Translations under genes and position numbers: made by a program | Origin: Lachnospiraceae bacterium | Lineage (GTDB): Bacteria; Bacillota; Clostridia; Lachnospirales; Lachnospiraceae | Assembly: GCA_017518735.1 (NCBI GenBank) | Contig: JAFWTY010000033.1 | Span: 35,165 to 99,164 of the forward strand | Direction of reading: 5' to 3' | DNA: 64,000 nucleotides | Part shown: positions 7,086-47,511 of the stretch, in pieces | Numbering within the stretch: position 1 is the stretch's first letter | Layout: every line of letters starts with the position of its first letter | Notes under the pieces: generated by a model | Told to the model about the DNA's origin: nothing | Seen by the model: only the letters and a program-made list of their open reading frames with translations | Database searches by the model: none

Positions 7086-7124
7086 TATCACTCTTCCTTA
7101 AGTCATATTTATGTCAACTATAAC

Positions 7125-7229: not shown

Positions 7230-8753
7230 ATGAAGAATTTTTCCCTTATTTCAACCCGAATAATTCTTGTTTTTTCCGGATTGTTCCTGCTTCTCGCCAT
7301 ACTGTCCGGTGTCATTATTCCACCCCATAATTTGTTAAGAACACAAATGATTCCGGCTTTGATTATTATGACGGCCGGTGTATTTCTGTTGATTTTTCTC
7401 ATTCCTTCCTTTTCCGGAAAAAGAGAAAATTCCGGGGAAAAGCTGTTTCGGATTCTCTTTTTGATTCTGATTACCGTCTTTGGAATTGCCATTTTTGTCT
7501 TAAACTTCAAATACAGGTTAATTAAGGCCTCCCTTCAGGATTACGCCGTCATTTCGGCTAATGCGGAATGCATTGCCAAAGGTACGGCACTGGAGGTTCC
7601 TGACTACTACCTGATTGCTTCCAACAACTTTAAACCGACCCTGATTCTGGCGCTTTGTTATAAGCTCGCCTATCTGCTCGGATTTTCAAATCCATATGTA
7701 CCCACTCTTCTTATTTTTACCGCCTGGACAGTGGTTTCCGTTTTGATTACATGCCTCATGATCGAAGGAAAGAATGCCTGGTTTTACCGTTTCCTTTTAC
7801 TTCTTGGTTTCCTGTTTATGCTCCCGCTTTACATTCAGGCAGGCTCCTTTTACACGGATTCCATGACCTTCGGAACGGCAATTATCACATTGTTTTTGAT
7901 GAAAAAAAGTGTCACTGCCATCAAAAAAGACAGCAAACCGGTAAAGCCAATTCTTCTGTCGGTGTGTGCCGGATTCATCTTGGCCGTAGGATACGGCATA
8001 AAAGTAACCGTCCTCATTCCGATCATTGCCGGCTTCATGGTTTTTCTTTTCTGGATGTTTACCAAAGAAAAAGCCAATCGCAAAGTATTAAAAACCGCAC
8101 TGCAATCTCTGGCTCCGGCAATTCTTGCATTCATCCTTTTCAGCATCGTTTTCGAGTCTTACTCATTAACATTCAAAGAATACAGGGATGCCAAGAAAAC
8201 CGAAGAACCAATCGTTGGATACATTGCCCTCGGATTGAAAGGAAACGGCTCCTTTGTGGAAAACAGTGATTTCGGATATGCCGAACGCTACCTTGCCAAC
8301 AAGGAAGAAAAAGCTGAGTTTTCCAAACAGTATATCAAAGAAAACGCCCATTACTTCTTCGAACCCGATCACATCCTTCGAAAGATGAATTATAACTTTT
8401 CTTCCGGTTTCCTGGGTGCAAGCGATTTCTGTTCCTATCCGGAAGAAGACGGCAATCTGTTCTATCATCTTTTTGATGCATGGGGCAACTACTACTGGCG
8501 CACTTCTCAGTATTGCTATCTCTATATTCATCTCCTCTACGCCATCCTCCTTTTGGGAGCCGTTTACGGCGTATACGTTACAACAAAAGAAAAAAAGATT
8601 CCCTGCAATCTTTTGCTCGGAAATCTTACTTTTCTCGGTCTTTTCATTTTCCTGATGATCTGGGAAGCCAACAACCGGCAGCTTTATAATCAAATGCCGG
8701 TTTTACTCTTCGGTGCAGTATCCGTAATCCGTTCCGTTCGAAGTCATAAGTAA
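7230..8753 (+). CDS. polytopic membrane protein (GT-C/PMT-like candidate), one of only three plus-strand genes and the only one in the glycan locus
   Basis: 507 aa with about 12 or more hydrophobic segments by eye. No soluble domain larger than about 90 aa. No close motif match that I can name. Confidence 0.6.
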   Translation: MKNFSLISTRIILVFSGLFLLLAILSGVIIPPHNLLRTQMIPALIIMTAGVFLLIFLIPSFSGKRENSGEKLFRILFLILITVFGIAIFVLNFKYRLIKASLQDYAVISANAECIAKGTALEVPDYYLIASNNFKPTLILALCYKLAYLLGFSNPYVPTLLIFTAWTVVSVLITCLMIEGKNAWFYRFLLLLGFLFMLPLYIQAGSFYTDSMTFGTAIITLFLMKKSVTAIKKDSKPVKPILLSVCAGFILAVGYGIKVTVLIPIIAGFMVFLFWMFTKEKANRKVLKTALQSLAPAILAFILFSIVFESYSLTFKEYRDAKKTEEPIVGYIALGLKGNGSFVENSDFGYAERYLANKEEKAEFSKQYIKENAHYFFEPDHILRKMNYNFSSGFLGASDFCSYPEEDGNLFYHLFDAWGNYYWRTSQYCYLYIHLLYAILLLGAVYGVYVTTKEKKIPCNLLLGNLTFLGLFIFLMIWEANNRQLYNQMPVLLFGAVSVIRSVRSHK

Positions 8754-10505
8754 ACTCTTCTTCTGATACAGAACAAATTTCTCATTTTGAAATACGATTG
8801 TATAATGATTCTCTCTTAAAAACTGTGCAAACAGTTTATCTTTTTCTTTTTCCAAATCCGATAAATCAACGGTTAAATAATTATCCCGATCGGCTTTTCC
8901 AAAAAAGAGCGGATATACTTCTTCGCTGTTAAGTCTCTCCAAATCCTCTTTCAACTCCTCGGTCGGGAAGGAGTCCAGATCCGGCCACGAATGGGAAATA
9001 GCACACTCTTCCTCCATATAAAAGAACAGGCCCGGCGTATCATTATAGCAAATTGCCTTCTGATGCTTTAACTGATTCTTATCCAGATAATCATTCAGTT
9101 CCTGCAGACTTTGTGCAGACTTTGCCTCTGTCCGGATTCCCTTCATAACAGGGTTATTATCAACCGTCTCAAATTTAGCCTGCGTAAAAGATGCATCATG
9201 GAATACGAATGTGATACCGAAAGCAGTACTTTGGAACAACACAAATAAACAAACCAGCAATGCGGATATATAAACTCCGGTCCGGAAAGCTGTCTTCCTG
9301 CCGGCAGTTTCGTCTTTTGCGAATACATCAAACATTTCCCCGATTACAAACGGGCCTGTAAGGAACATGTTGTTAAATGCAGTATACAATCCGTTGTTGC
9401 TTCCGATCGGTGTAATCAAAACAATTATAAGAACAGTCAGACCGAGAAGTTTTCTCTCTTCGCTGATGTCTTTTCGGAACAATCCGTATACAGCCAGAGA
9501 AATTGCCATCATCAGCATAAACGTTCCGAACATGAAGATGGATCGATAATCATTGTAGGTAAAATTGAATGCCCCGTATCTTCGGTAAAGAACAAGTGAA
9601 ATACCGGCAAATCCGATTGCTTCGAAAACCAAAATGATGATGCGAAGAATTTTTTTCTTAATGAAGGCGAACAATACTCCGCAAAGAACTGCACACAAGA
9701 GGTAAGGTACAAAAAACTTAAAATACATCCTGTAATCGTCGAAGATTTTTACAAGCATCGCCTTCGGCGTATACGATGTCGCTTCCTTTGTCATTCCGAA
9801 CAATGAATGAATCATGGCAAAGAAGGAATCTTTTCCCCATGCGATGGAAACCAGCACAAAGCCCGCCGCAAATACAGCGATATACCCGCCGATGCAAAGC
9901 ATTACTTTGCGCCATACATTTTTCTTTTTCAAAATACCATGGAAGATTAAAACCACGATTAACAGACACTCTGTTACGTTCGGAAAACGTACAAAAAGAT
10001 TCAAAGCGAGTATTCCGCCGGCTATAAAGTAAAGTGCCTTTTTCTCTTTTTGAATTGCAAGAAGTAAAAGAATCGCGCCGAGGTCAAACAAATAGTAAGT
10101 AAGATAATGATACAAAATAGTTCTCGGGCACCAGCAGAAACCAAGCGCAATGAACATCCCCAAAAATACCGGCAGGGAATTGTAATGCCGGCGCAGTAGA
10201 AAATAGATTACAGAAACAAATATGCCACTGAGAATCGTGCAATAAATGTTGAGGCCCAGAACAGTTCCGCCAAGCGGCAATATCGAAAAGAAACGGCCGA
10301 TGACATTCGCAAGCACCGTAGAAACCGCCCACGTTTCATTCATGTTTGGAAACACGGAAAAATTGAGCAGATTATAGCCTGTATCCGAAACACTGATTCC
10401 GGTTGAAATATGTAAAAACGGAAAAGCAAACAATAGTAAAACAAACAAGATATCCAATAATCTCGTCGTTTTCTTTGTATTCGATTCCATCGCTTTATTT
10501 CCCAT
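8703..10505 (-). CDS. large polytopic membrane protein with C-terminal extracytoplasmic domain (GT-C-like glycosyltransferase candidate)
   Basis: The ATG overlaps the upstream stop (TAATG) and has SD GAAGGGA. SDTGYNLLNF acidic motif directly after TM1. About 150-aa soluble C-terminus. Confidence 0.65.
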   Translation of the reverse strand: MGNKAMESNTKKTTRLLDILFVLLLFAFPFLHISTGISVSDTGYNLLNFSVFPNMNETWAVSTVLANVIGRFFSILPLGGTVLGLNIYCTILSGIFVSVIYFLLRRHYNSLPVFLGMFIALGFCWCPRTILYHYLTYYLFDLGAILLLLAIQKEKKALYFIAGGILALNLFVRFPNVTECLLIVVLIFHGILKKKNVWRKVMLCIGGYIAVFAAGFVLVSIAWGKDSFFAMIHSLFGMTKEATSYTPKAMLVKIFDDYRMYFKFFVPYLLCAVLCGVLFAFIKKKILRIIILVFEAIGFAGISLVLYRRYGAFNFTYNDYRSIFMFGTFMLMMAISLAVYGLFRKDISEERKLLGLTVLIIVLITPIGSNNGLYTAFNNMFLTGPFVIGEMFDVFAKDETAGRKTAFRTGVYISALLVCLFVLFQSTAFGITFVFHDASFTQAKFETVDNNPVMKGIRTEAKSAQSLQELNDYLDKNQLKHQKAICYNDTPGLFFYMEEECAISHSWPDLDSFPTEELKEDLERLNSEEVYPLFFGKADRDNYLTVDLSDLEKEKDKLFAQFLRENHYTIVFQNEKFVLYQKKSLLMTSNGTDYGYCTEE

Positions 10506-11656: not shown

Positions 11657-11673
11657 TTTTTCCTCTTGTAATA

Positions 11674-12612
11674 CTATTTTCTGGATTGATGAATCATCAT
11701 CTGAATCATATTCAGTCTTGCTTCAAAGTCTTTCTTATTCGTTTTCACAACGGTATCCAGGATCAGTCCGCAAATAAAGAGCAGGATTGAAACAATCATT
11801 ACCGCAATGGACACAAACAAAGTAGGGAAACGTTCTACGAGTCCCGTTCTTAAGTAATCAATAAATACCGGAACAAAGAATCCGACTCCCAGTGCCAGGA
11901 AGGCGAAGGAACAGAGCCCGAAAAACCTTAACGGCTTGTAATCCTTGAACAGTTTAATAATTGTCATCAGAACTTTAAACCCATCCGAATAGGTATTCAG
12001 TTTGGACACGCTTCCGTCCGGTCTATCCCTGTACTGTACCTCTACGGTATCCAGCTGCATATTTTTGTCCAGCGCAAAAATAGACATTTCGGTTTCGATT
12101 TCAAATCCCTTGGAAAGAACCGGGAAGGATTTGACAAAAAGAGGAGAAAATGCACGATACCCCGTCATAATGTCCGTAATCTTTCCGCGGAACAGGTTGT
12201 TTACCGCTCCCCTTACAAGCGTGTTTCCGAAGTTATGGAACGGTCTTTTGTTTTCCTGGAAATATGTGGAAGAAAGACGATCTCCGATAACCATGTCTGA
12301 TCCCTTTTCCAAAACAAGATCACACATCTCTCTTGCATTTTCGGCGGGATATGTATCGTCACCGTCTATCATAAGATAGCAGTCCGCATCAATATCACGG
12401 AACATGGTACGGATTACGTTTCCTTTTCCCTGACGTCTTTCATACCGGACAATTGCTCCTGCTTTTCTTGCAATTTCATCGGTTCCGTCGGAAGAGTTAT
12501 TGTCATATACATAGATATCCGCTTCCGGCAGAACAGCACGATAATCCGTCACTACCTTTTCAATTGTCTTTGCCTCATTATAGCAAGGAATTAAAACTGC
12601 AATTTTACTCAT
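11674..12612 (-). CDS. GT2 polyprenyl-phosphate glycosyltransferase (DPM/GtrB-like; candidate polyprenyl-P-mannose synthase)
   Basis: Trimmed to the ATG at 12612 (SD GAGAGGG). Motifs IPCYNEAKTI, DNNSSDGT, DGDDTYPA. Two C-terminal TM helices. Lies directly downstream of manC-manA. Confidence 0.75.
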   Translation of the reverse strand: MSKIAVLIPCYNEAKTIEKVVTDYRAVLPEADIYVYDNNSSDGTDEIARKAGAIVRYERRQGKGNVIRTMFRDIDADCYLMIDGDDTYPAENAREMCDLVLEKGSDMVIGDRLSSTYFQENKRPFHNFGNTLVRGAVNNLFRGKITDIMTGYRAFSPLFVKSFPVLSKGFEIETEMSIFALDKNMQLDTVEVQYRDRPDGSVSKLNTYSDGFKVLMTIIKLFKDYKPLRFFGLCSFAFLALGVGFFVPVFIDYLRTGLVERFPTLFVSIAVMIVSILLFICGLILDTVVKTNKKDFEARLNMIQMMIHQSRK

Positions 12613-12623
12613 CTTTGCCCTCT

Positions 12624-13631
12624 CTAACAACGCACACGTAAAAACTGCGCTATTCCGTGTAATTTTATTTCATAATTGCCTGCAGGAATGAAAACACAAT
12701 CCCCCTTAAAAAGATCCAGTGCTTCATCTCCCGCATGAAGTACCCCGCATCCGTCGGTACAAAGAAGTACCTGGAATGTTTCGGACAATGCATTCATTTT
12801 CGTATATTCTCTGCATCGCTCCGTATTCATCAGTAGGCGTTCCGTTTGAAAGACTCTGCATCTGCAAAGAATCTCGGATGCGCTGCCTCTTGTATATTTC
12901 AAAACTCGAATCGGCTGTCTCGGATCCTCGGAAGATTTATAATTCATCACCTCAAGAGCCTTATCGATATGTAAGGGGCGTTCCTTTCCCTCTTTGTCTT
13001 TTCGATCATAATCATATAACCGGTATGTGATATCCGAGTTTTCCTGCACTTCGGCAAGAAGGCAACCGGATCCGATTCCGTGAACCGTTCCGGGAGCTAC
13101 AAAGAATACCTGATTCTTTTCAATCGGGACTTTTCGGATAAGACTTTCCAACTTCTTTTCCCGCAATGCGTTCACTACTTCTTCCCGGTCCGTATCCTTT
13201 CGAAAGCCGTAAATAATATTGCTATCCGGTTTTGCATCGAGGACATACCACATTTCCATCTTTCCCAAAGAATCCTCGTGAATACGTGCATATTCATCAT
13301 CCGGATGAACCTGAATGGAAAGATCCGACTTCGCATCGATGAGTTTGATCAAAATCGGAAGTTCGCCTTTTTCATTCGCATGTCGCCCAAGCATGTCAGG
13401 ATGATTCTTCAGCACTTCGGCAAGTGTCATTCCTTTATACACACCGGATGCAACCAAGGCCTCTCCTGACGGATGCGTGGAACACTCCCATGTTTCCGCA
13501 AGCGGTTCCATGTCAATGTTTTTGGAAAAATCATCATTGAGCCTGTTTCCGCCCCAAAGATAATCTTTTCCCGCAGGACTGAGCAGGAACGGTATTTCGT
13601 TTTTATTCCAGTTCGAATTTGTATTTGTCAT
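12624..13631 (-). CDS. manA: class I mannose-6-phosphate isomerase
   Basis: WECSTHPSG, IQVHPDD and VHGIGSG motifs. The ORF-track start at 13667 is a TTG. The ATG at 13631 (MTNTN...) has the AAGGAA SD. Overlaps the manC 3' end. Confidence 0.85.
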   Translation of the reverse strand: MTNTNSNWNKNEIPFLLSPAGKDYLWGGNRLNDDFSKNIDMEPLAETWECSTHPSGEALVASGVYKGMTLAEVLKNHPDMLGRHANEKGELPILIKLIDAKSDLSIQVHPDDEYARIHEDSLGKMEMWYVLDAKPDSNIIYGFRKDTDREEVVNALREKKLESLIRKVPIEKNQVFFVAPGTVHGIGSGCLLAEVQENSDITYRLYDYDRKDKEGKERPLHIDKALEVMNYKSSEDPRQPIRVLKYTRGSASEILCRCRVFQTERLLMNTERCREYTKMNALSETFQVLLCTDGCGVLHAGDEALDLFKGDCVFIPAGNYEIKLHGIAQFLRVRC

Positions 13632-14916
13632 GAATTGTGATTTCCTTGCCAATCTGCACTTCAACAATCTTCAACGTTGTATCCGCAATAACGGTATGGC
13701 GGCACCCTGTCTGCATTGTGATTACATCACCAACGGTAACATTCTGCTTCATTCCATCTACAACTGTAGTTCCTTTGCCTTCGATGACAACCCATACTTC
13801 ATCTCGCAACTGATGAGAATGATAATTCATGCTGTGTCCCGGATTTAATGTTACCAGAATCGTCATGCTTTCGTCTTCCACATTCAACACACGGAAACTT
13901 CCCCAAGACTTCTCCGCAAACATAACCTGTCCGACGATATCATCCACATAAGGTTTGATGTAACTTGATTCTTTTTTGTCCGAAACCAGAATTCCTTCCG
14001 GGCTTGCCGTAATAATTACATCATGCATTCCCATTGCAAGTATCGGCACGTTCAGTTCATTGATGATATGAACGTTTTCACATTTATCGTTCATAACTCC
14101 TTTTCCCATCACATGATCTTCGATAGATTCCGTAAGGGTATTCCAGGTTCCGAGATCCTTCCACACACCCCGGAAACGCATGACTGCAATGCGGTCTTCC
14201 TTTTCCGCAACCGCATAATCAAAACTGATTCTTTCCAAATCCGAATAACGTTCAAACAAATCGCGGTAATCGCGAAATGCAATCAGTTCATGTGCCTTCT
14301 TTAAAAGATATCCAAGACGGAAAGCAAACACTCCGCCATTCCACAATGCACCTTTTTGAATATATTCTTCTGCGGTTTTTTCATCCGGCTTTTCCTTGAA
14401 CATTGCTACTTCACTTACCGGATTGGAATCTTTGGGAATAATGTATCCGTACTTTGCGGAAGGATATGTCGGTTCCATTCCGAGAAGACAAAGGTTTGCT
14501 TCCGAAGTCTGTGCCAGTTTGCACAGTTCAATCAAGGCTTTAAAATAATCATCCTCCACATAAGGATCGACCGGGCAGATCACAACAGCTTCATCATCCG
14601 GGACACGACACTCATCATGGAGATACGCACAGGCAAGTGCAATTGCGGGAAACGTGTCCTTCCTGTCCGGCTCAACGCTGACATTCACCTTGTTTCCAAG
14701 CTGATTCTCAATCTCGGACAACTGCGTTTTGGAAGTGGCAATCGTGATATTAACGTTCTCTCCGGCCTTTTTTAACCCACGATACATTCTCTGAACCATG
14801 GATTCATATTCGCCGTTTTCATCTTTAAAAAAACGAATAAACTGTTTGGATCTTACATCATTCGATAACGGCCACAAGCGTTTTCCGCTTCCTCCGGATA
14901 ATAAAACAACATTCAT
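13603..14916 (-). CDS. manC: mannose-1-phosphate guanylyltransferase with C-terminal cupin domain
   Basis: MNVVLLSGGSGKRLWPLS...KQF nucleotidyltransferase P-loop. C-terminal cupin (GHSMNYHSHQLRDEVWVVIEG). ATGA overlap with the upstream gene. Confidence 0.85.
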   Translation of the reverse strand: MNVVLLSGGSGKRLWPLSNDVRSKQFIRFFKDENGEYESMVQRMYRGLKKAGENVNITIATSKTQLSEIENQLGNKVNVSVEPDRKDTFPAIALACAYLHDECRVPDDEAVVICPVDPYVEDDYFKALIELCKLAQTSEANLCLLGMEPTYPSAKYGYIIPKDSNPVSEVAMFKEKPDEKTAEEYIQKGALWNGGVFAFRLGYLLKKAHELIAFRDYRDLFERYSDLERISFDYAVAEKEDRIAVMRFRGVWKDLGTWNTLTESIEDHVMGKGVMNDKCENVHIINELNVPILAMGMHDVIITASPEGILVSDKKESSYIKPYVDDIVGQVMFAEKSWGSFRVLNVEDESMTILVTLNPGHSMNYHSHQLRDEVWVVIEGKGTTVVDGMKQNVTVGDVITMQTGCRHTVIADTTLKIVEVQIGKEITIHDKYKFELE

Positions 14917-16097
14917 TCTTCTTCCCCCGTTGTCTCTTTATTTTCTGAAACTCCGTATAAGCTTGCTCCCCATACTGCCCATGTCATACCGGGAACAAAG
15001 AAATATCTGAAATCAAATTCCGCCGGTGAAACAAAAGCGCCATAAACGGCAGTTGCCAGAATCAGCAATCCGAAAAACAACGCGTTTCGAATGATTCCCG
15101 CAACCTTTTCTTTTGTTCCGATCCGTTCAAATAATCCTTTTATAATCAAACAGGGAATACAGATTGCAAATCCCAGTCTGGTTGCGCTCACATAGAAGTA
15201 CGTAAGTGCCGGTCTCTTCTGCCACATGATATTCAGATACAATGCGTTGACATTGTCTCCGAACGGATACTCTTTTTTTGCAAGAACGAAAGGCGAAAGT
15301 GCTCCGGAAAAAACTTTTTTCAAAGTGGTTTTATCCATCGTCACCGCAGAAATCCACTGCGTATCGGAAATAACCACAAACAATGCAAGCGCCAGCATCC
15401 CCGCCATTCCGAATGCAAATACAAGCTCCCTGGCCAGATTGTCCTCGTTCCGCGCTTCCTTTTTGATAAGAATCTTTATAAGTCCCGCAAAACAGATAAC
15501 AAACGTACATCCTATACATACGTAAAACGAATATCTTTGAAGATATAAAAGCAGGAACAGGGAAAACAGATTTGCAAATGCAAAGGAAAAGTTCCTTCCC
15601 TTTCCAATCGTTTTCACAAAAAGGAATGCGTTTCCGATTCCGTATATCACAAGAGAAAATGCAAGCGCATCCGGCAACATGGCAAATACCATCTGCCACA
15701 TAAACGGATTCGTCAGGATCAAAACCGTTACAAGAGCCACACTTCCGTGCGGTGCTTTTTTCCCCGTTGTTCCTCTGATAAATGCTGCGCATCCGCTGTG
15801 AATAAACCCGTTGCAGAGCATCATCTGAAGCAGATATGCCACAGCATAAAAAGGAATTCTGGTAATTCTCTGTAACACTCTGCAAGCCACAATAAAGTAG
15901 GCATATCCCACCGAGTCATACCCAACCGTTTGGAGGCATTCTTTCACGGAAAGATAATTCTGCGTTTGCGCAAAAGGCTGAATGGACGCTATATTGGCAA
16001 TCCCCCAGACAATTGCAGTGAGAGCCTGAAACCAGACAAGCGCCAGCACCATGCCTTTGAATAATAATGCAATTTTACCGTTCCATGTTTTTTTCAT
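14913..16097 (-). CDS. polytopic membrane protein of unknown function
   Basis: 394 aa with about 10 hydrophobic segments. Tightly packed in the operon. Confidence 0.55.
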   Translation of the reverse strand: MKKTWNGKIALLFKGMVLALVWFQALTAIVWGIANIASIQPFAQTQNYLSVKECLQTVGYDSVGYAYFIVACRVLQRITRIPFYAVAYLLQMMLCNGFIHSGCAAFIRGTTGKKAPHGSVALVTVLILTNPFMWQMVFAMLPDALAFSLVIYGIGNAFLFVKTIGKGRNFSFAFANLFSLFLLLYLQRYSFYVCIGCTFVICFAGLIKILIKKEARNEDNLARELVFAFGMAGMLALALFVVISDTQWISAVTMDKTTLKKVFSGALSPFVLAKKEYPFGDNVNALYLNIMWQKRPALTYFYVSATRLGFAICIPCLIIKGLFERIGTKEKVAGIIRNALFFGLLILATAVYGAFVSPAEFDFRYFFVPGMTWAVWGASLYGVSENKETTGEEE

Positions 16098-16114
16098 ATT
16101 ACAAACAGTTCAGC

Positions 16115-17002: not shown

Positions 17003-17008
17003 GTTGTC

Positions 17009-18223: not shown

Positions 18224-19179
18224 TCTTCGTCCATTCCTTTATCTTTTGCCGGAATCAACTCACGAACAACATACTGCGGAGAATTATTCATGCAAAGATA
18301 CATTCTACCTACATACTCGCCAATCATTCCGAGCATCAGCATAATCATTCCGCCAATAAATACCAGCACGCTCATGAGAGCAGAGAATCCGGCCTGTACT
18401 TCAACCAGAATAATCTTCTTTATAATCGTATAGATACCATACAGGAAACCGCCGCATGCGCAAATGGTTCCGATCAGGGTCGCAATTCGAAGCGGTTTTA
18501 CCGAAAAGGCTGTAAAGCCGTTAAACCAAAGCGATAAGAGTTTGCTTAAAGTATATCCCGATTTTCCGACTTCTCTTGCGCGATGGTTCACTTCCACATT
18601 TGCTATGTTTTTGGTTGCTCGTAACACCAGACCGATAACGTAGGAGTACGGCTGCTCATAGCGGATCATATCGTCAACGATAAAACGTTTTGCTGCAAAG
18701 TAACTGGAAATGTAGAGTTCCTTCGGTTTATCCAGCATAATCCTGGTCATCATTTCATTTACTTTGCTACCCATGTTACGAAATCCGCTATGCTGCTTTT
18801 TTCCGTAGTATGCATAGCAGACATCATATCCTTCTTTCAGTTTGTCTAACAGCTTTCCAACCTCGTTTGCCGGTGTCTGTCCGTCATCATCGAGACAAAC
18901 CACAATATCACCGTCCGACGCACGTAGTCCGGCCATCAGTGCCGCATGCTGTCCAAAGTTTCTTGCCAGACCGATACCGGTAATAAACGGATACTTCTCA
19001 CAAAGAATACGAATGGTATTCATGGTTTGATCCGGAGAAGAATCATTCACGAGAATAATCTCATGTGTATACTCCGGCATGGTTTTCATTGTTTCATTGA
19101 TTTCTTCCACAACGGCTTCTATTGTTTTTTCCGAACGATAACACGGAATCACAAATGAAACTTTGCTGTTCATCTTCAT
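18220..19179 (-). CDS. ArnC-like GT2 polyprenyl-phosphate (amino)sugar transferase
   Basis: VSFVIPCYRSE, VNDSSPDQT, ARNFGQHAALMAG, LDDDGQTP. Two C-terminal TMs ending in IGEYVGRMY. Confidence 0.8.
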   Translation of the reverse strand: MKMNSKVSFVIPCYRSEKTIEAVVEEINETMKTMPEYTHEIILVNDSSPDQTMNTIRILCEKYPFITGIGLARNFGQHAALMAGLRASDGDIVVCLDDDGQTPANEVGKLLDKLKEGYDVCYAYYGKKQHSGFRNMGSKVNEMMTRIMLDKPKELYISSYFAAKRFIVDDMIRYEQPYSYVIGLVLRATKNIANVEVNHRAREVGKSGYTLSKLLSLWFNGFTAFSVKPLRIATLIGTICACGGFLYGIYTIIKKIILVEVQAGFSALMSVLVFIGGMIMLMLGMIGEYVGRMYLCMNNSPQYVVRELIPAKDKGMDEE

Positions 19180-19210
19180 TTCACTCTCCCTTTTCGTTTT
19201 CCTGCTTTGT

Positions 19211-19747
19211 TTACATTTCAGGATTTATCACTGCCATCAGTACAATATCTCTGTACGTTCCATTCACATATACATCACCATGAAGCAACGCTTCTCTCAC
19301 AAAACCGGCATTCTCATAACTCTTGATTGCCGCAACATTATCGGCATACACGCGTAAGAAAACACGGTGAAGATGCATTTTTTCAAATGCATATTGAACC
19401 ATCATCTTAGCCACTCTGCTTCCCACTTTTTTCCCTCTCGCTGAAGCTTCTCCGATGAAGATTCCGTATTCCGCTTTATGATGCACCGGATCGATATCTC
19501 TGTAGTAAACGCTTCCAACAGGCTGATATTCGTTGTTTTCATCCGGAATACAAATGATGAACTGTTTTGCCCTTCCGGCTTCCACCACACCTTTCAGCCA
19601 CTTCATATGGCTCTCCGGTGTGAACAAATTCTGATCGATAAAGTTTAAACGCACCGCATCACTGTTCCTCCAGCGAACGATATTCTCCGTATCCGCTTCA
19701 TCGATTTCTCTTAATAATATTCCGTTTTCCGTAATCTGTTCCTTCAT
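19211..19747 (-). CDS. GNAT family N-acetyltransferase (WecD/PseH-like sugar N-acetyltransferase candidate)
   Basis: Trimmed to the ATG at 19747 (ATGA overlap with the upstream stop). LREIDEADTENIVRWRN...AEYGIFIGE..ARGKKVG...NVAAIKSYENAGF is a GNAT fold signature. Confidence 0.75.
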   Translation of the reverse strand: MKEQITENGILLREIDEADTENIVRWRNSDAVRLNFIDQNLFTPESHMKWLKGVVEAGRAKQFIICIPDENNEYQPVGSVYYRDIDPVHHKAEYGIFIGEASARGKKVGSRVAKMMVQYAFEKMHLHRVFLRVYADNVAAIKSYENAGFVREALLHGDVYVNGTYRDIVLMAVINPEM

Positions 19748-21543
19748 TCCTGCTCCACTGTTCGAATTGCCAAAATCCATATTTCTTTTCCGGAAGGTAA
19801 TATTACCACGTCCTCTTGCGAAACCGTAACCGATATTCCCTGTCCCTCGTAGTATTCTTTGATCCAATCCGTTCCGTAATAATCATTTTCCACATAATAG
19901 GCGTTTTCATCCGTTCGTACGGAAACCCAGGTTTTGCTTCCGCCTCTGTTTTTTAAATAGTCTTCGTGAATCGGACTTTTTACAATCCATCCCCCCAAAC
20001 GGCAGAAATTGTTTTTTTCATATGTGGAAGAAGCAAACATTTTTTCTGCGTAATTGGAGAAAGATGATGTTTTTAAGTAATACGTATTCTGCGGATGTTC
20101 CGTAAAATATTCGTTCATTGCAGTCCAGTCCGCATCCCTTTCTTCCGTTTCCCGAAGAAGTAGTTTCGTATGATAAAACCGGGTTCCGGCAATCACAAGC
20201 AATGCAATCAATACAGACGTTGTGCCGACTCTGCAAATAATCTTTCCGCTCTTCGTTATGCCGGTATCATCGTTTTTCTCTTCAGGAGTTTTTTCCGGTT
20301 TCTTCCGATTGACTCCCGAGAAAAAGGTTCCCGCAAGGAACGCTATAATCAGCAGATACAAACCATATGAAACGCGTTCCGGAAATCTTCCGCGATATAT
20401 AAAATATCCGGAAAATGCCATCATATATAAAAATGCAACAACGCTGAAAACCAGTTCTTTATAGCTTTTTTTCCATATCAGAACAAGTAGCAATAGCAAA
20501 GTTCCAAGGAATAAGATCCACGCTGCCGGCCATAACGGATTCTCAAAAATCTTGGGAATCAGTTTTTTGATGATATACTTAATTGCCCATATTTTTGTTA
20601 ACGGCAACGCATTGTCATTTTCCCAGTATTTCCTGCTAAGTTCAGCCAGGCCTTCCATGCGGTCCGCATTATAGTCCTCAAAAAGACCTAAATCCCATTC
20701 ACTTAGAGGATACATGTCCGACTTACTGTAACCGAGTTCTTCATATTCCGCCTCTGCTCTTTCAAATGAAGGCAGATGATAATAATCATATATCTGAATA
20801 CGTTCCGAATGAATCTCCCGAAACGCTTTCCATTCATCGGAAGAATATGCCAGTTTTTCCGCTCCGAAAACAGCTAAAACCGAAACCGATATAATTAAAA
20901 ACAAAATGATCAATGACTTCTTTTTGCTTCGAAATCCCTGATATAAAAGCGCCAGCCCAAATACGGGAAGCACCATAAGAAACGCTTCCTGACGCAATAA
21001 CAGGCACAATACAATAGAACAGGTAATCACCACATAATCTGCAATCAGTTCGTTTTTTTTCGAAGTACGCAGTGTTGTCAGCCAAAAGATGCCAACCGCT
21101 CCGACAACTGCAGCCAGTATCGTATACTGATGAAGAACCAAGTATTGAAAATCCAAAACCAGTAACAATACTCCGGTTGCAACAACTCCTAAAACACGTT
21201 TCCATGTTTGTATCTCTTTGCTAAGATGGCATACTCTGACAAGAACCAGGAAATAGGCCAGAATGTGAATCAAACAAAGAAACAAATCATACCAGGGAAC
21301 ATTGCCGTTCAGTGCATACAGAGATTTCAACAGAAATCCCAGTAAAAACATCCCGTTTACAATGTGGGATTCCGGAAATCCGCTGATATCTCCGCTAAGC
21401 AGTGCTTTGATCATTACATCATCATTTGTTGTAAAACGCGGTCCGTAAAAAACAAGCGCAACAACCGCAGTCACGATGCAAAAAAGCAAGGCTGTAATAA
21501 GTGGAGCCATGTCGGGTTTTTCACGGTTTTTAAACAGTGCCAT
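19744..21543 (-). CDS. large polytopic membrane protein with C-terminal soluble domain (GT-C-like candidate)
   Basis: 599 aa. TTNDDVMIKAL acidic motif right after TM1. About 14 hydrophobic segments plus a soluble tail of about 150 aa. Confidence 0.6.
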   Translation of the reverse strand: MALFKNREKPDMAPLITALLFCIVTAVVALVFYGPRFTTNDDVMIKALLSGDISGFPESHIVNGMFLLGFLLKSLYALNGNVPWYDLFLCLIHILAYFLVLVRVCHLSKEIQTWKRVLGVVATGVLLLVLDFQYLVLHQYTILAAVVGAVGIFWLTTLRTSKKNELIADYVVITCSIVLCLLLRQEAFLMVLPVFGLALLYQGFRSKKKSLIILFLIISVSVLAVFGAEKLAYSSDEWKAFREIHSERIQIYDYYHLPSFERAEAEYEELGYSKSDMYPLSEWDLGLFEDYNADRMEGLAELSRKYWENDNALPLTKIWAIKYIIKKLIPKIFENPLWPAAWILFLGTLLLLLVLIWKKSYKELVFSVVAFLYMMAFSGYFIYRGRFPERVSYGLYLLIIAFLAGTFFSGVNRKKPEKTPEEKNDDTGITKSGKIICRVGTTSVLIALLVIAGTRFYHTKLLLRETEERDADWTAMNEYFTEHPQNTYYLKTSSFSNYAEKMFASSTYEKNNFCRLGGWIVKSPIHEDYLKNRGGSKTWVSVRTDENAYYVENDYYGTDWIKEYYEGQGISVTVSQEDVVILPSGKEIWILAIRTVEQE

Positions 21544-22663
21544 AGAACTCCTTCACGCACTTTATAATGTATTCCGTCTTTTCTTTTTCCAGATTGTAGT
21601 AAAGCGGCAGTCTGACAAGTCTCTCACTTTCCCGTGTCGTATACCTGTCTTCTCCTGCAAATCTTCCGAACTTTAATCCGGCAGGTGCAGAGTGAAGCGG
21701 TACATAGTGGAAAACAGCAAGAATGTCTTTCTCTTTTAAGAACGCAATCAGTTTTGTTCTCTCTTCCAAATCCGCTGCCTTAAAATAAAACATATGCGCA
21801 TTATGCGTACAATTCTCAGGGATGAAAGGAAGCTCGATTTTGCCTGCATCGGCAAGATCTTTCAATCCCTCGTAATATGTATTCCAAGTATTCATACGGT
21901 TTTCCGTAATCTCATTCGCAAGTTCGAGCTGCGCATACAGATATGCTGCATTCAATTCACTGGGAAGATAGGACGATCCCTTATCTACCCATGTATACTT
22001 ATCTATCTGACCGCGGAAGAACTTCGCACGGTTCGTTCCTTTTTCACGAATAATCTCGGCAGGCTCAATATTCTCCTCATCACGAATCAGCAATGCTCCG
22101 CCTTCTCCTATGGAAAAGTTCTTCGTTTCATGGAAGGAGAAGCATCCGAATTCTCCAAAGGTTCCGAGTGCTTTTCCCTTATAGGTCGACATGATACCCT
22201 GCGCAGCATCCTCAATCACCTTGAGATTGTGTTTTTGAGCAATGGCCATAATGGTATCCATTTCGCAACCGACTCCGGCATAATGAACCGGAACAATCGC
22301 CTTCGTTTTTTCGGTGATAGCCGCTTCAATCAAATTTTCATCGATGTTCATGGTATCCGGTCTGATATCCACAAAAACCGCAGTCGCACCGCGAAGCACA
22401 AAAGCATCCGCTGTCGATACAAACGTATAGGACGGCATGATTACCTCATCGCCCGGTTTGATATCGGCAAGGATTGCGGCAAGTTCCGTAGCATGGGTAC
22501 AGGATGTCGTAAGCAACGCTTTTTTCGTACCTGTCTTTTCTTCCAGCCACTGATTGCACTTAGCGGTAAACTCACCGTCTCCGCAAATCTTCTGGTTATT
22601 TACGGCCTTAATGATGTATTCTGTTTCTTTCCCGGTAAAGGGTGGTACATTAAATCGAATCAT
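21530..22663 (-). CDS. wecE: dTDP-4-amino-4,6-dideoxyhexose (Fuc4N-type) transaminase
   Basis: Collinear by eye with E. coli WecE from the first residues: MIRFNVPPFTG.E..YI......K.CGDG.F...C..WLE; PGDEVIMPSYTFVSTA.AFVLRGA; FSFHETKN; DKYTW.D.GSSY. Confidence 0.85.
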   Translation of the reverse strand: MIRFNVPPFTGKETEYIIKAVNNQKICGDGEFTAKCNQWLEEKTGTKKALLTTSCTHATELAAILADIKPGDEVIMPSYTFVSTADAFVLRGATAVFVDIRPDTMNIDENLIEAAITEKTKAIVPVHYAGVGCEMDTIMAIAQKHNLKVIEDAAQGIMSTYKGKALGTFGEFGCFSFHETKNFSIGEGGALLIRDEENIEPAEIIREKGTNRAKFFRGQIDKYTWVDKGSSYLPSELNAAYLYAQLELANEITENRMNTWNTYYEGLKDLADAGKIELPFIPENCTHNAHMFYFKAADLEERTKLIAFLKEKDILAVFHYVPLHSAPAGLKFGRFAGEDRYTTRESERLVRLPLYYNLEKEKTEYIIKCVKEFYGTV

Positions 22664-23600
22664 GGTGTCCTCCGGATTTTAAGTTTTTTGTTCTGTTTCG
22701 AATAATAAATCTCGGTCTTCCTTTTACTTCTTCATATATTCTTCCAAGATAATGTCCGATAATTCCAAGGCTGATCATAATACAGCCTCCGATAATCAGA
22801 AGAAGGAGAATGACCGTCGTAAATCCTTCTACTGCAATATCTAGGAAATAATTCACAAGGGTTTGAATTCCCAGGATCAGGGAAAAAACAATCATAACAG
22901 CTCCGACAATTGCAATCAGTTTCAGCGGTGCCGTAGTAAAGGAAGTCGTATTTGTAATGGCATACCTTACCAGTCCGCCAAAAGACCATTTGCTTTTTCC
23001 GTGAGCTCTTTCCTGTACATCGTATTCAACCTGCGTGGAACGGAAGCCGACCCAGAATGATAACGCACGGAAGAAGGTGTTGCTCTCATTCAGGCTAAGC
23101 AGGGCATCTACCACTTTGCGATCCAGTAATTTGAAATCCGAAGTGGCATTCATATCCATCTTCATCAAACTGCTCATGATTCCGTAGAAGATTCCGGAAA
23201 ACATTTTATAAAAAATGTTTTCTCTTCCTCTCGAAGACTTGATTCCTTCTATGACCTCATATCCCTCTTCCCAAAGTCTGTACATTTCCACAAGTGTTTT
23301 GGGCGGATGCTGCAGATCACAGTCGATTACGGAAACACAGTCTCCGCTTGCCGCGGAAAGGCCGGCAAAAATAGCTGCCTCTTTTCCGAAGTTTCTGGAA
23401 AACTGAATTCCTTTAATCCTTTCATCTTCTTCCGACAGTTTTTCAATCATGTCAAAAGTTCCGTCTTTTGATCCGTCGGAAACAAAGACCAGTTCATAAG
23501 GAATCTGCTCTTCCCTTAAAATATCGCCTATGGTTTTTGCGGTATTCACGATGTTTTCCTCCTCGTTATAAGAAGGAATTACAATTGACATAGTCCCCAT
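22650..23600 (-). CDS. GtrB-like GT2 polyprenyl-phosphate glycosyltransferase
   Basis: SD AAAGGAGAG. IPSYNEEENI, VSDGSKDGT, FSRNFGKEAAIFAGL, DCDLQHPP. Two C-terminal TMs ending in IGHYLGRIY. Confidence 0.85.
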   Translation of the reverse strand: MGTMSIVIPSYNEEENIVNTAKTIGDILREEQIPYELVFVSDGSKDGTFDMIEKLSEEDERIKGIQFSRNFGKEAAIFAGLSAASGDCVSVIDCDLQHPPKTLVEMYRLWEEGYEVIEGIKSSRGRENIFYKMFSGIFYGIMSSLMKMDMNATSDFKLLDRKVVDALLSLNESNTFFRALSFWVGFRSTQVEYDVQERAHGKSKWSFGGLVRYAITNTTSFTTAPLKLIAIVGAVMIVFSLILGIQTLVNYFLDIAVEGFTTVILLLLIIGGCIMISLGIIGHYLGRIYEEVKGRPRFIIRNRTKNLKSGGHHDSI

Positions 23601-23611
23601 TGTTCTCTCCT

Positions 23612-25174
23612 TTATTCCCGGGTATCTCTGCCTTCGGGCGGCTCTGTTTTAATATACATAATACCGTCCACTATTTTTATGCTGTCTTTTGCAGGGAAGG
23701 AATCCATCTCCCTGTATGCATCGGAATTGTAAATATCTATAATCGTTTCACTGTCCGTAATTACGTTGAGGCTGAAATTGAGATAGTGTTCCATGAATGC
23801 CTGGTACTGTTCTCCTTTATAAATCAGCATATCTCCGGTGGTCCCGGAAATACGTTCCGTTACATCACCTGTAATATCGGTAACCGGGTACTTTTCTTCA
23901 TCCAGCACACCGATCATCATCACGGGGATACCGGTATAATATCCTTCCGTCTGTTCAATTCGGTCAGCCAGTCTGACACAGTATGCATACGTTTTTTCAT
24001 AGCGCTCATTCATGTTGAAATACGCAATATTGTCGGCAAGAATAAACTGCCAGATTAACAGTACTCCGCCTAGAAGACCTGCCGCACCTATGAAAAACGA
24101 AGGTCTTGCTTTACGAGTTTCCCCTTTCGGCATTCGGTCAATCAGACAAAGCGCAAAAATGGGGAAGAGCCCCCATTGCATTCTCATCAGCAAATGATAA
24201 TAAGCCTCCGAGGAAATCAGGATAATCACATTGGTTCCAATCGGAATGATTGCTACAAATACAACAACAAGAAGTGATAAATACCACTTCTTAATTGCTT
24301 TCGTATGCACAAATAAGGTTACCAGGCAAAGCAAGGAAACCCCGAATAATAATACCACAGCAATATAAGAAAATCCATTTGTAAGGAAGATTCTGCCGTT
24401 TCGAAGGAATCCGAAAAAGTCCTTGATTGCTCCCACAATCATTCCCGGCATGGAGGATACGGAGACTTTTCCCATGTTATTGATTCCCTGATAGGTATCC
24501 AGCACTTTTCCCTGTGCCTTTAAACAGATTTGGAGAATCACATAATACAGAATTCCCCCGAGTGCTCCCATCGCAAAATACTTCACTCCCCGGATTAGGA
24601 TAGCCTTTATTTTTTCATTCTGAGCACACATCAGAATCAGATCGAAGAGACAAAGCAGGATGGTCGCTGCCAGATACGCCTGATAGGTTCCGAGACTTAA
24701 ACTGAGTGCAATCGCCCCAAGTGCCCATCCGGTTTTATTCATCTTTTTCGTAAGATAAACCGCAAGTACGGCAAAGAAGAATCCAAGGAAGTAACCGTCT
24801 GCCGTATACATATAAGCATAGGTTGCCGTAACCGCAGGGAATGTCACGAGTGTAGCTGCGATTAATCCCATTACCGTCTTGCTCTTGATTTCCAGAATCC
24901 GAACAAGGACAACTGCTGCCAATGCAAAATAGAGAATCGACAATAGCCCGTTGATCCACTTTAAATCAAAGAAGGACGAAATACCGCAGGCTACCGTCAG
25001 AAACCATCTGCCGCTTGTGACCATGTTCTGATCAAAGTAGAAACTGGTCATTGCATCCGAATTTGGAAAGTTATGTATCATAACCGGAAAATGTGTCAGT
25101 ATTCCGACTACAATAGTAGTCCAAAACGGAACAGTTATATTCGGTTGTTTCATTTTTTCAAGAAACTTTGACAT
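23612..25174 (-). CDS. GtrII-type (Glucos_trans_II-like) polytopic glucosyltransferase
   Basis: N-terminus ...FWTTIVVGILTHFPVMIHNFPNSDAMTSFYFDQNMVTSGRW matches the serotype-converting Gtr glucosyltransferase family pattern. Lies directly downstream of a GtrB homolog. Confidence 0.7.
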   Translation of the reverse strand: MSKFLEKMKQPNITVPFWTTIVVGILTHFPVMIHNFPNSDAMTSFYFDQNMVTSGRWFLTVACGISSFFDLKWINGLLSILYFALAAVVLVRILEIKSKTVMGLIAATLVTFPAVTATYAYMYTADGYFLGFFFAVLAVYLTKKMNKTGWALGAIALSLSLGTYQAYLAATILLCLFDLILMCAQNEKIKAILIRGVKYFAMGALGGILYYVILQICLKAQGKVLDTYQGINNMGKVSVSSMPGMIVGAIKDFFGFLRNGRIFLTNGFSYIAVVLLFGVSLLCLVTLFVHTKAIKKWYLSLLVVVFVAIIPIGTNVIILISSEAYYHLLMRMQWGLFPIFALCLIDRMPKGETRKARPSFFIGAAGLLGGVLLIWQFILADNIAYFNMNERYEKTYAYCVRLADRIEQTEGYYTGIPVMMIGVLDEEKYPVTDITGDVTERISGTTGDMLIYKGEQYQAFMEHYLNFSLNVITDSETIIDIYNSDAYREMDSFPAKDSIKIVDGIMYIKTEPPEGRDTRE

Positions 25175-25189
25175 ATCTCTTTAAACTTT

Positions 25190-26116
25190 CTATTTCTTCT
25201 CTCGAATAATATATATGGGACGACCTTTGATCTCATTGTATGCCTTGGCAAGATACATACCGATGATTCCGCTTACAAACAACTGCAATCCGGCAAAGAA
25301 TGTAATCATGCAGGCAAGTGAAGGCCAACCGATTACAGGATCTCCGAATATCAACGCCCTGATAAACAGAAAGATTAACAAAACCAGTGCGACAAAGCAG
25401 AAGAACAGTCCCACAAACGAAGCCCATTCAAGAGGCGCTGTGGAAAATGCAACCATTCCTTCCAGGGAATAACGGAATAAGGAAAAGAATGACCACTTTG
25501 TCTTTCCCGCTACTCTTTCTCTGTTTTCAAAATCAATCCACTTGGTCTGAAATCCGACCCAGCCGAAAATACCCTTGGAAAAGCGATGGTACTCTTTCAT
25601 GGAGAGGATAGCATCCACCATAACACGCTTCATGAAACGATAATCTCTTGCGCCGTCCATCATATTTAACTTCGCCATTTTGTTCATGATCCGGTAAAAC
25701 GCTCTTGCGAATGCGGAACGGATAATCGGCTCACCTTTCCGGTCGATTCTTCTGGTAGCGGCACAGTCATATCCTTCCTCTTTTACCGCCCTGTACATTT
25801 CCGGCAGAAGCTCGGGAGGATCCTGCAAATCCGCATCCATTATCACAACATAATCTCCTGTTGCTTCCGAAAGTCCTGCGAACATAGCAGCTTCTTTTCC
25901 GAAGTTTCTGGAAAAAGAAACATAATGAACCTTTTCGTCTTTTGACGCCAGTTCACGCATTACTTCCAGTGTTCTATCTCTGCTTCCGTCATCAACAAAA
26001 AGGTATTCAAATTCCAATTCCGTCATGGTAGAAACCGTTTTTTCGGTTTCTTCGTAAAATAACGGAAGCGCCTCCTCTTCGTTATAACAAGGAACTATTA
26101 TCGTACATTTTTCCAT
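25190..26116 (-). CDS. gtrB: bactoprenol glucosyltransferase-like GT2
   Basis: VPCYNEEEALP, VDDGSRDRT, FSRNFGKEAAMFAGL, DADLQDPP. Two C-terminal TMs ending in IGMYLAKAY. Confidence 0.85.
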   Translation of the reverse strand: MEKCTIIVPCYNEEEALPLFYEETEKTVSTMTELEFEYLFVDDGSRDRTLEVMRELASKDEKVHYVSFSRNFGKEAAMFAGLSEATGDYVVIMDADLQDPPELLPEMYRAVKEEGYDCAATRRIDRKGEPIIRSAFARAFYRIMNKMAKLNMMDGARDYRFMKRVMVDAILSMKEYHRFSKGIFGWVGFQTKWIDFENRERVAGKTKWSFFSLFRYSLEGMVAFSTAPLEWASFVGLFFCFVALVLLIFLFIRALIFGDPVIGWPSLACMITFFAGLQLFVSGIIGMYLAKAYNEIKGRPIYIIREKK

Positions 26117-27163: not shown

Positions 27164-27172
27164 TTCCTGATG

Positions 27173-32431: not shown

Positions 32432-32439
32432 AGTTTTCC

Positions 32440-33294: not shown

Positions 33295-33304
33295 ATCCTA
33301 CCTG

Positions 33305-35178: not shown

Positions 35179-35190
35179 GATAATCCTTTC

Positions 35191-36240: not shown

Positions 36241-36252
36241 TTCGATTCCTCT

Positions 36253-40589: not shown

Positions 40590-40618
40590 TACTACTTCCT
40601 CTGTATTTCTTTTCCCTT

Positions 40619-41704: not shown

Positions 41705-41724
41705 ACTTTATTCTCCATCTAATC

Positions 41725-42279: not shown

Positions 42280-42291
42280 AATTCTCCCCCG

Positions 42292-43128: not shown

Positions 43129-43132
43129 ATTC

Positions 43133-44232: not shown

Positions 44233-44260
44233 TTTTTAGGTAAGGAAAACCATTTGCAAT

Positions 44261-47496: not shown

Positions 47497-47511
47497 TTTA
47501 GTCCTCTTAAC

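Follow-up and report, generated by a model that had tools for sequence, protein, structure and literature searches.

Gram-positive bacteria such as Lactococcus lactis, Listeria and Bacillus subtilis are well known to use multi-component transmembrane glycosylation (PMC8035078). In Gtr systems a common donor synthase, GtrB, and a flippase, GtrA, work with a serotype-specific transferase, which is termed a GT-C enzyme (PMC11127046). In Streptococcus mutans, two synthase–transferase pairs, SccN/SccM and SccP/SccQ, are found in one wall-polysaccharide locus, the flippases are unidentified and one donor is common to two transferases; SccN and SccP were studied by membrane assay (PMC11754754). The locus examined here lies in a 64-kb window (the whole stretch of DNA analysed, 64,000 nucleotides) of a contig from a gut or rumen Lachnospiraceae bacterium. 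We consider it likely that it is a long surface-polysaccharide operon (putative), the tailoring half of which, at 8703–26116, encodes several multi-component transmembrane glycosylation modules that modify a surface glycan outside the cytoplasm.

In region 2 of the S. mutans SCC locus, as here, several GtrB-type synthases and GT-C enzymes lie downstream of the backbone genes, and no flippase gene is present in the locus. The SCC locus has two synthases, both making undecaprenyl-phosphate-linked glucose (Glc-P-Und), whereas the window has four, two of which have dedicated precursor genes, in one case for an amino-dideoxyhexose and in the other for mannose. The SCC backbone is an ABC-exported rhamnan, whereas an EpsG-type polymerase and a PglK-like ABC protein are encoded here, and the window differs also in having GT-C families without a Pfam model. 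The L. lactis (CsdAB, CsdCD and CsdEF with CflA) and B. subtilis (CsbB/YfhO, YkcBC and YkoST) systems are similar in that there are three GT-A/GT-C pairs per genome and the flippase is encoded elsewhere; the three L. lactis pairs use one flippase (PMC8035078). However, those pairs are scattered on the chromosome and serve different polymers, while the modules described here are stacked in one putative operon. The mycobacterial donors (Ppm1, PpgS and DPA) are a further parallel, as several lipid-monophosphate donors are made, GT-C enzymes outnumber donors and the glycan is extended or decorated outside the membrane (PMC11127046), but mycobacteria belong to another phylum, use other GT-C families and have these genes dispersed rather than in one operon.

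The Shigella and Salmonella Gtr systems, phage and chromosomal, also include a GtrB-like synthase (E about 1e-67 to the solved GtrB for those in the window) beside a GtrII-family GT-C enzyme, with synthases conserved and transferases variable between genomes. The window differs in that its modules are chromosomal and inside a biosynthesis operon, two synthases flank a single GtrII protein and the host is of the Gram-positive type. With no GtrA gene in the window, the locus by itself is not a classical three-component Gtr system (GtrA, GtrB and a Gtr-type transferase). The Arn (PmrF) pathway likewise combines an aminotransferase, N-acylation and an ArnC-like transfer to undecaprenyl phosphate (Und-P), and ArnT is the best structural match of one of the polytopic proteins (19744–21543). 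However, the aminotransferase here is WecE-type rather than ArnB, the acyl group would come from a PseH-like acetyltransferase rather than the ArnA formyltransferase and the acceptor cannot be lipid A. Library scans found no match to ArnA, ArnD or ArnE/F among the window proteins, and the locus does not belong to the Arn pathway.

No account of such systems in Lachnospiraceae was found in the literature searched, nor any in Clostridia among the titles and abstracts. The original prediction that the system is undescribed for Clostridia holds to that extent, though the type of system was already known in Gram-positive bacteria (PMC11754754, PMC8035078). The mechanism is thus a known one. What is new is how densely it is packed, a single operon having four donors and at least five candidate transferases, and how widely it is conserved among Lachnospiraceae. 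Two GT-C families that no model covers and the predicted lipid donor of an amino-dideoxyhexose are also new. The surface glycans of this family, whose members are dominant in gut and rumen, have hardly been studied.

Polyprenyl-phosphate sugar synthases and their precursors

According to the list of open reading frames (ORFs), minus-strand genes run unbroken from 37635 to 8703. The coordinates and gene order originally given for 8703–26116 proved correct, as did its uninterrupted minus-strand coding; the junctions between 26116 and 8703 are gaps of at most 31 nucleotides (nt) or small overlaps, among them 4-nt overlaps at 18220–18223 and 19744–19747. A promoter and terminator scan was uninformative within such a gap-free coding block. 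Terminator-like hairpins between 7000 and 26999 numbered 38, about twice the 18.1 (standard deviation 3.8) seen in shuffled sequence, despite there being almost no intergenic space. Four GT2 enzymes are encoded in the interval:

25190–26116, minus strand: GtrB-like polyprenyl-phosphate hexose synthase (synthase a), with a GtrB structure match and a C-terminal transmembrane (TM) hairpin
22650–23600, minus strand: GtrB-like polyprenyl-phosphate hexose synthase (synthase b), with a GtrB structure match and a predicted C-terminal TM hairpin
18220–19179, minus strand: ArnC-like polyprenyl-phosphate amino-sugar synthase, with an ArnC structure match
11674–12612, minus strand: DPMS/AglJ-like polyprenyl-phosphate hexose (probably mannose) synthase, with an AglJ model and a DPMS structure match

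Synthases a and b, which are 38% identical, matched GtrB (sll0501 of Synechocystis, PDB 5EKP) over residues 4–305 (E 7e-68) and 4–301 (E 8e-66), respectively, and the ArnC-like enzyme matched ArnC (PDB 9HWJ, 9BHC and 8VXH) over residues 5–313 (E 6e-44). In these three, the homology to solved GtrB or ArnC also takes in the juxtamembrane region and both C-terminal TM helices. In NCBIfam, synthase a gave full-length matches to PgfS (321 bits) and ArnC (164 bits), both under cut-off, and the ArnC-like enzyme a full-length match to PRK10714 (183 bits). The fourth enzyme aligned with the AglJ model TIGR04182 over residues 10–300 (217.6 bits, cut-off 325) and was matched weakly by the PpgS model. Pfam Glycos_transf_2 was found in all four.

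A four-way alignment bore out most of the sequence signature described in the original prediction. The DxGSxDxT-like and DxDxQ/DGDD boxes are present in all four synthases, with DADLQ, DCDLQ, DDDGQ and DGDD lining up as an acidic DxD-type motif. The N-terminal PxYNE is missing from the ArnC-like enzyme, which reads PCYRSE. Three of the four have (S/A)RNFG(K/Q), and three end in IG(M/H/E)Y..(K/R).Y. Hydropathy detected two C-terminal TM helices in all four (at residues 234–252 and 267–285 of synthase a and 239–257 and 273–291 of the DPMS/AglJ-like enzyme), while the five other GT2 enzymes in the window (starting at 26117, 28918, 32440, 34390 and 37790) have no such hairpin. By these comparisons the four GT2 enzymes belong to the GtrB/ArnC/DPMS class of polyprenyl-phosphate sugar synthases, as had been proposed, with full-length GtrB or ArnC matches for three and an AglJ/DPMS match for the fourth. 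Each is predicted to form a polyprenyl-monophosphate sugar from a nucleotide sugar.

Genes for precursor supply and for acyl modification lie between the synthase genes or beside them:

21530–22663, minus strand: WecE-type dTDP-4-amino-4,6-dideoxyhexose aminotransferase (NCBIfam)
19211–19747, minus strand: PseH-like GNAT N-acetyltransferase for 4-amino-4,6-dideoxy sugar nucleotides (NCBIfam; Pfam Acetyltransf_3), its start set at 19747 after the gene call of locus L001
13603–14916, minus strand: ManC-type mannose-1-phosphate guanylyltransferase (Pfam NTP_transferase and MannoseP_isomer/Cupin_2)
12624–13631, minus strand: type I phosphomannose isomerase (PMI; Pfam PMI_typeI_cat, E 3e-18), with the start taken from the 335-aa (amino acid) gene call in L001
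10505–11656, minus strand: AT3 membrane acyltransferase (Pfam Acyl_transf_3, E 1e-22)

The aminotransferase scored well above cut-off for TIGR02379 (649 bits, cut-off 435) and PRK11706 (647 bits, cut-off 375) and well below it for ArnB (189 bits, cut-off 631). The acetyltransferase was just above the cut-off for PseH (TIGR03585, 100.4 bits, cut-off 93.1). Together with the ArnC-like enzyme, these two lead us to predict that 4-acetamido-4,6-dideoxyhexose is loaded onto a lipid carrier. The literature searched held no description of such a lipid-linked donor, and the WecE/PseH-like/ArnC-like module makes it directly testable. In the same way, the ManC and PMI genes that precede the DPMS-like gene point to lipid-phosphate mannose as its probable product. 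The claim that each synthase has its own sugar-supply genes is therefore correct for these two but fails for the two GtrB-like synthases, which have no dedicated precursor genes.

Polytopic membrane proteins of the interval

Polytopic membrane proteins are encoded by five genes in the interval, one of which (14913–16097) was overlooked in the original prediction, and an SGNH gene lies between two of them:

23612–25174, minus strand: GtrII-family GT-C glycosyltransferase, polytopic, 520 aa (Pfam PF14264 Glucos_trans_II)
19744–21543, minus strand: GT-C-fold glycosyltransferase of a new family, 599 aa (AlphaFold and Foldseek)
17009–18223, minus strand: polytopic membrane protein of 404 aa, from its neighbourhood a candidate partner transferase for the ArnC-like synthase
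16115–17002, minus strand: membrane-anchored SGNH/GDSL hydrolase or acyltransferase (Pfam Lipase_GDSL_2, E 3e-12; one N-terminal TM helix)
14913–16097, minus strand: polytopic membrane protein, 394 aa, about 8–12 TM helices by hydropathy, possibly related to GT-C enzymes or a partner of the SGNH enzyme
8703–10505, minus strand: GT-C-fold glycosyltransferase of a new family, 600 aa (AlphaFold and Foldseek)

The four that had been named as partners of the synthases are genuine polytopic proteins with 9–13 hydropathy peaks. All-against-all BLAST revealed no paralogy or detectable mutual similarity among the polytopic proteins. The 23612 protein (proteins and families are referred to by the first coordinate of the gene) matched PF14264 with E 3.8e-51 (174.6 bits, cut-off 30). 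The 19744 and 8703 proteins had no Pfam or NCBIfam match, and profile searches of their families (23 and 70 relatives, respectively) against PDB sequences found nothing meaningful. AlphaFold models built from the family alignments were, however, of good quality, with predicted local distance difference test (pLDDT) scores of 88.3 and 91.6 and a predicted template modelling (pTM) score of 0.89 for each. With Foldseek against the PDB, the best match of the 19744 model was ArnT 5EZM (E 2e-5, probability 1.0), followed by AftA, DPY19, Pmt4, STT3 and AftD. The top 31 matches of the 8703 model were all GT-C enzymes, including STT3 6S7T (E 9e-6), ArnT, AglB, PglB, Pmt4, Emb and ALG9; in a Foldseek comparison with viral structures it had no phage Gtr-like match at E ≤0.001. 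Across the two models, the matches to ArnT, STT3, PglB and Pmt4 had a probability of 1.0.

The 19744 family has invariant N40-D41-D42, which opens the first helix after the first TM helix (TM1), and R386/P388-E389-R390; in the 8703 family, the invariant residues G36 and D41 stand at the start of the corresponding helix. In both models the invariant Asp thus opens the first helix after TM1, the position of the GT-C catalytic acid. From hydropathy and the positive-inside rule, the conserved acidic residues of the 19744, 8703 and 17009 families would face outside. Together, the GtrII match, the modelled folds and the invariant Asp identify three of the four named partners as GT-C enzymes, from the Pfam match for 23612 and from the models for 19744 and 8703. 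The GT-C reading is tentative for 17009, whose family gave no PDB or Pfam signal. Hidden Markov model, AlphaFold and Foldseek comparisons recovered ArnT-, STT3-, PglB- and Pmt4-like folds for 19744 and 8703 and no match to YfhO. The conserved adjacency to synthase genes suggests that the GT-C enzymes use lipid-phosphate-linked sugars at the outer face of the membrane. New GT-C families continue to be established, GT136 for example (PMC11127046), and the two families here that have no existing model could likewise found new CAZy families.

The best structural matches of 8703 are protein glycosyltransferases (STT3, PglB, AglB and Pmt4), and PgfS is the best NCBIfam model for both GtrB-like synthases (321 and 281 bits). 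These matches raise the question of whether some or all of the modules instead act on proteins, glycosylating Ser/Thr-rich stretches of those at the surface or in the membrane, like the Pgf and GtrB/PgtC2 pathways of streptococci. Protein O-glycosylation by a GtrB-type synthase with a GT-C enzyme is documented (PMC12041528), and as regards function this is the chief rival. However, the PgfS scores are far under the cut-off of 500, PgfM1, PgfM2 and PgtC2 are of the YfhO type for which no match was found here, and no coding-strand ORF contained a Ser/Thr-rich tract (at least 14 Ser or Thr in 30 residues). As the modules are also embedded in, and co-oriented with, a polysaccharide assembly operon, we regard a protein target as very improbable.

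The 17009 family is larger: the protein search found 164 relatives at E ≤1e-5, and the genome scan 160. Two motifs are strongly conserved, E44-S45-D46..H50, in which S45-D46 is invariant and E44 is found in at least 90% of members, and W141-H142-N143-S144-T145-Y146. Judged by hydropathy and the positive-inside rule, both would lie in extracellular loops. Sub-threshold matches of the single 17009 sequence to PMT_2 and TMEM260 were discarded because they were not upheld across the family, PMT_2 recurring in only one of 36 members. One relative (P0190, 383 aa, 68% identity over 55% of the query) carries a precomputed PF00348 polyprenyl synthase domain, through either fusion or chimeric assembly. 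Of the 14913 family, which is divergent, only 43 representatives were found. Its distant members gave sub-threshold matches to DUF6541 (six members) and DUF2142 (three members). One relative (P0248) is a 749-aa fusion with a C-terminal SGNH/GDSL domain at residues 515–728, mirroring the adjacent SGNH and 14913 genes.

In our reading, 17009 and 14913 probably act as GT-C transferases. It is possible, though on the unlikely side, that one or more of the polytopic proteins, chiefly these two, are not monosaccharide GT-C enzymes but chain ligases or polymerases that use diphosphate-linked donors, or acyl-translocating partners of the SGNH enzyme by analogy with the AT3-SGNH or MBOAT/SGNH O-acylation systems. 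Neither family gave a GT-C signal, and the 17009, SGNH and 14913 genes are contiguous, an arrangement conserved in 25 of 27 (SGNH with 17009) and 12 of 12 (14913 with SGNH) loci. For 14913, the SGNH fusion, the weak O-antigen_lig matches of two members and the AT3 match of one point the same way, as do, for 17009, tandem paralogues in distant genomes, around which no synthase gene was detected for about 10 kb. Those paralogues nevertheless sit among PMT_2 and GT87-like proteins, and 17009 adjoins the ArnC-like synthase, in either order, in 46 of 49 loci, often without the SGNH gene. Its invariant acidic motif falls in the first predicted external loop, as in GT-C enzymes, and the distant relatives of 14913 match DUF2142 and DUF6541 rather than acyltransferase families.

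Recurrence and reshuffling of the modules

When species-representative genomes were scanned with the 17009 family, 80 loci came up, every one of them from Lachnospiraceae, Acetatifactor or related genomes. The exact locus is found again in metagenome contigs, and homologues are labelled as metagenome-assembled genomes (MAGs) of Lachnospiraceae. In 83 related loci that were compared, ORFs were classed by BLAST against the window proteins. The number of TM-tailed synthases per locus ranged from zero to four:

no synthase: 31 loci
one synthase: 11 loci
two synthases: 13 loci
three synthases: 23 loci
four synthases: 5 loci

The four-synthase order of the window was repeated in five other Lachnospiraceae genomes (L007, L008, L010, L011 and L023), as was the order ManC-PMI-synthase. 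Since this order recurs in five loci and two or more synthases are present in 41 of the 83, the arrangement is not due to chance. Gene adjacency was also strongly conserved:

ArnC-like synthase and 17009 family, either order: 46 of 49 loci
GtrII and synthase b: 36 of 37 loci
synthase a and GtrII: 16 of 18 loci
19744 family and GNAT: 20 of 20 loci
14913 family and SGNH: 12 of 12 loci
SGNH and 17009 family: 25 of 27 loci

The ArnC-like synthase follows the GNAT gene in 34 of 48 loci, and the 19744 family, where present, is inserted between the WecE and acetyltransferase genes. The 8703 family lies directly downstream of AT3 in 21 of 37 loci and adjoins the ArnC-like gene in 14 of 37. Because its neighbours alternate in this way, the units are reshuffled modules and not four fixed pairs. 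The original prediction of four donor–transferase pairs is overstated: the interval contains five polytopic proteins, four more candidates are found outside it and the gene order is shuffled. Taken strictly, four self-supplied pairs serving one glycan would be more than the evidence supports. A prophage or mobile-element origin was rejected because GC content is level at 0.40–0.46 across the window and synteny of the block is seen in many genomes.

The synthases of the orthologous loci are 76–91% identical to those of the window, and donor synthases and precursor enzymes together 62–91%. Identity of the polytopic proteins was 63–73% for GtrII and 17009, 47–51% for 8703 and 24–33% for 14913; the 19744 gene is missing from four of the five loci and its product is 36% identical in the fifth. 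This suggests that the transferases turn over rapidly. By analogy, conserved synthases with variable polytopic proteins would correspond to the Gtr pattern of a conserved donor and a variable transferase. The conserved operon also suggests that in Lachnospiraceae surface diversity arises chiefly outside the membrane, from several lipid-linked sugar donors and GT-C enzymes that evolve fast, which bears on phage and immune recognition.

The independent gain, loss and reordering of modules between genomes could also mean that they act on different acceptors (a wall polysaccharide, a capsule and a teichoic-acid-like polymer, for instance) and are clustered only for co-regulation. The three GT-A/GT-C pairs of L. 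lactis decorate rhamnan, pellicle and lipoteichoic acid through one flippase (PMC8035078), and further polytopic candidates and a second amino-sugar gene set are found at 38539–49691. The tight translational coupling, the single strand block with a single assembly pathway and the block order kept in five other genomes argue against this, and we judge separate acceptors unlikely.

Three distant loci (L062, L063 and L086, labelled Lachnospiraceae, 'Bacterium 1XD8-76' and a [Clostridium] symbiosum MAG) have two or three tandem paralogues of distant 17009 homologues. Their arrays include up to eight polytopic proteins per 21 kb, with DUF6044, DUF6020, PMT_2 and weak GT87-like members and several without a match, and few or no synthase genes nearby.

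Proposed route and surrounding genes

Upstream of the interval, the same strand encodes functions for glycan assembly and export:

36253–37635, minus strand: Bac_transf initiating transferase (Pfam)
33305–34393, minus strand: EpsG-type polymerase (Pfam)
27173–28921, minus strand: fused ABC exporter, PglK/MsbA-like, a candidate flippase for a lipid-linked glycan (Pfam ABC_membrane and ABC_tran)
26117–37635, minus strand: upstream assembly genes as a whole (Pfam), which also include four soluble GT2 enzymes, two GT4 enzymes and one protein without a match

Hydropathy found a TM tail in none of the upstream GT2 and GT4 enzymes. The ABC protein matched the NCBIfam PglK model over its full length (381 bits, under the cut-off of 1000), and its gene is kept just upstream of synthase a and GtrII in at least 14 loci.

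In the route we favour, extracytoplasmic tailoring of a surface glycan, the genes from 37635 to 26117 would build and export a lipid-linked glycan through the Bac_transf, GT2, GT4, EpsG-type and PglK-like ABC proteins, and those from 26116 to 8703 would modify it at the outer face of the membrane. At the cytoplasmic face, the four membrane-anchored GT-A enzymes would load single sugars onto Und-P: probably hexose or N-acetylhexosamine from housekeeping UDP-sugars for the two GtrB-like enzymes, 4-acetamido-4,6-dideoxyhexose for the ArnC-like enzyme fed by WecE and the PseH-like N-acetyltransferase, and mannose for the DPMS/AglJ-like enzyme fed by ManC and PMI. The lipid-linked sugars would be flipped by a protein for which no gene was recognised in the window. 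The GT-C enzymes (GtrII-family, 19744 and 8703, and probably 17009 and 14913) would then pass the sugars to the acceptor, and the AT3 acyltransferase and the membrane-anchored SGNH enzyme would attach or remove acyl groups. With transferases outnumbering donors, some donors probably supply two transferases. In this scheme we infer the sugar identities, the lipid carrier, the acceptor, the order of the steps and the roles of 17009 and 14913. A stronger version is rather doubtful: here, five or more GT-C-type enzymes from families without a Pfam or CAZy model would act in sequence as an extracytoplasmic assembly line, building oligosaccharide side chains from four undecaprenyl-monophosphate sugars, one of them the 4-acetamido-4,6-dideoxyhexose donor, and the fast-diverging transferases would give strain-level surface diversity in Lachnospiraceae of gut and rumen.

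Several results weigh against the tailoring route. The only PDB match of the DPMS/AglJ-like enzyme was the archaeal DPMS of Pyrococcus (5MLZ, E 3e-8), covering the catalytic domain alone. All synthase NCBIfam scores were under the equivalog cut-offs, and therefore the family is secure but the sugar is not. Profile searches gave no PDB or Pfam signal for the 17009 family and, against PDB sequences and Pfam, nothing above threshold for the 14913 family. Comparison of the polytopic families with hhalign was uninformative, giving a probability of 3% for two families with the GT-C fold and about 50% only with larger alignments; as it missed two families sharing that fold, the negatives for 17009 and 14913 carry no weight. 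A GT-C fold alone cannot separate a monosaccharide transferase from a whole-chain transferase with a diphosphate-linked donor, and WpsJ is an example of a GT-C-like protein in such loci that is thought to join whole chains (PMC9746298). The expected flippase gene is also missing: no ORF of 70–220 aa with three or more TM helices in the window looks like GtrA, and tblastn of the GtrA protein from locus L004 against the 64-kb window gave only E ≥0.99. The absence of a GtrA-type small flippase had been noted in the original prediction.

In L004 (GCA_041596215.1), a GtrA_DPMS_TM gene (3091–3540) lies between two GtrII genes and a GtrB-like synthase gene, so a flippase gene is present in some versions of the operon, though not in the window. 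GtrA is also found beside a 17009 homologue in two distant loci (L046 and L047). The source genome may encode a flippase elsewhere. The only transporter in the operon is the fused PglK/MsbA-like ABC protein. PglK exports a diphosphate-linked glycan and, by analogy, this is the more likely role of the ABC protein here. The locus is a compact system for studying how several Und-P-sugars are flipped without a nearby GtrA gene.

A second cluster, at 44407–49691 on the minus strand, contains no TM-tailed GT2 gene:

44407–46290, minus strand: DUF6020 polytopic protein
46303–47496, minus strand: PseC-type aminotransferase, above the curated cut-off
47512–48447, minus strand: nucleotidyltransferase
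48522–49691, minus strand: DUF6056 polytopic protein

It may encode further lipid-donor transferases with another amino-sugar supply. A 527-aa polytopic protein without a family match (38539–40122, minus strand) has an N-D-E motif just after TM1, and its gene overlaps by 4 nt that of a DUF212 divergent-PAP2 protein (40119–40589, minus strand); it may be another GT-C candidate, beside a lipid-phosphate phosphatase-like protein. On the plus strand, 7230–8753 encodes a 507-aa polytopic protein; at its 3′ end this gene shares 51 nt with the end of the 8703 gene. This protein gave a weak, full-length match to TIGR03766, 'XrtG-associated glycosyltransferase' (E 5e-8, far under cut-off).

The 365-aa membrane-anchored protein at 5994–7091 (minus strand) had no significant Pfam match, only a weak one to DUF2157; its sequence IFGNDTFGDD resembles, by eye, the SGNH block I motif. 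GH25 muramidases at 2751–5966 and 40619–41704, both on the minus strand, flank the locus. The larger, at 2751–5966 (1071 aa), combines a TM segment with three Big_2 domains and a choline-binding-type repeat, and because of these it may bind the decorated wall polymer.

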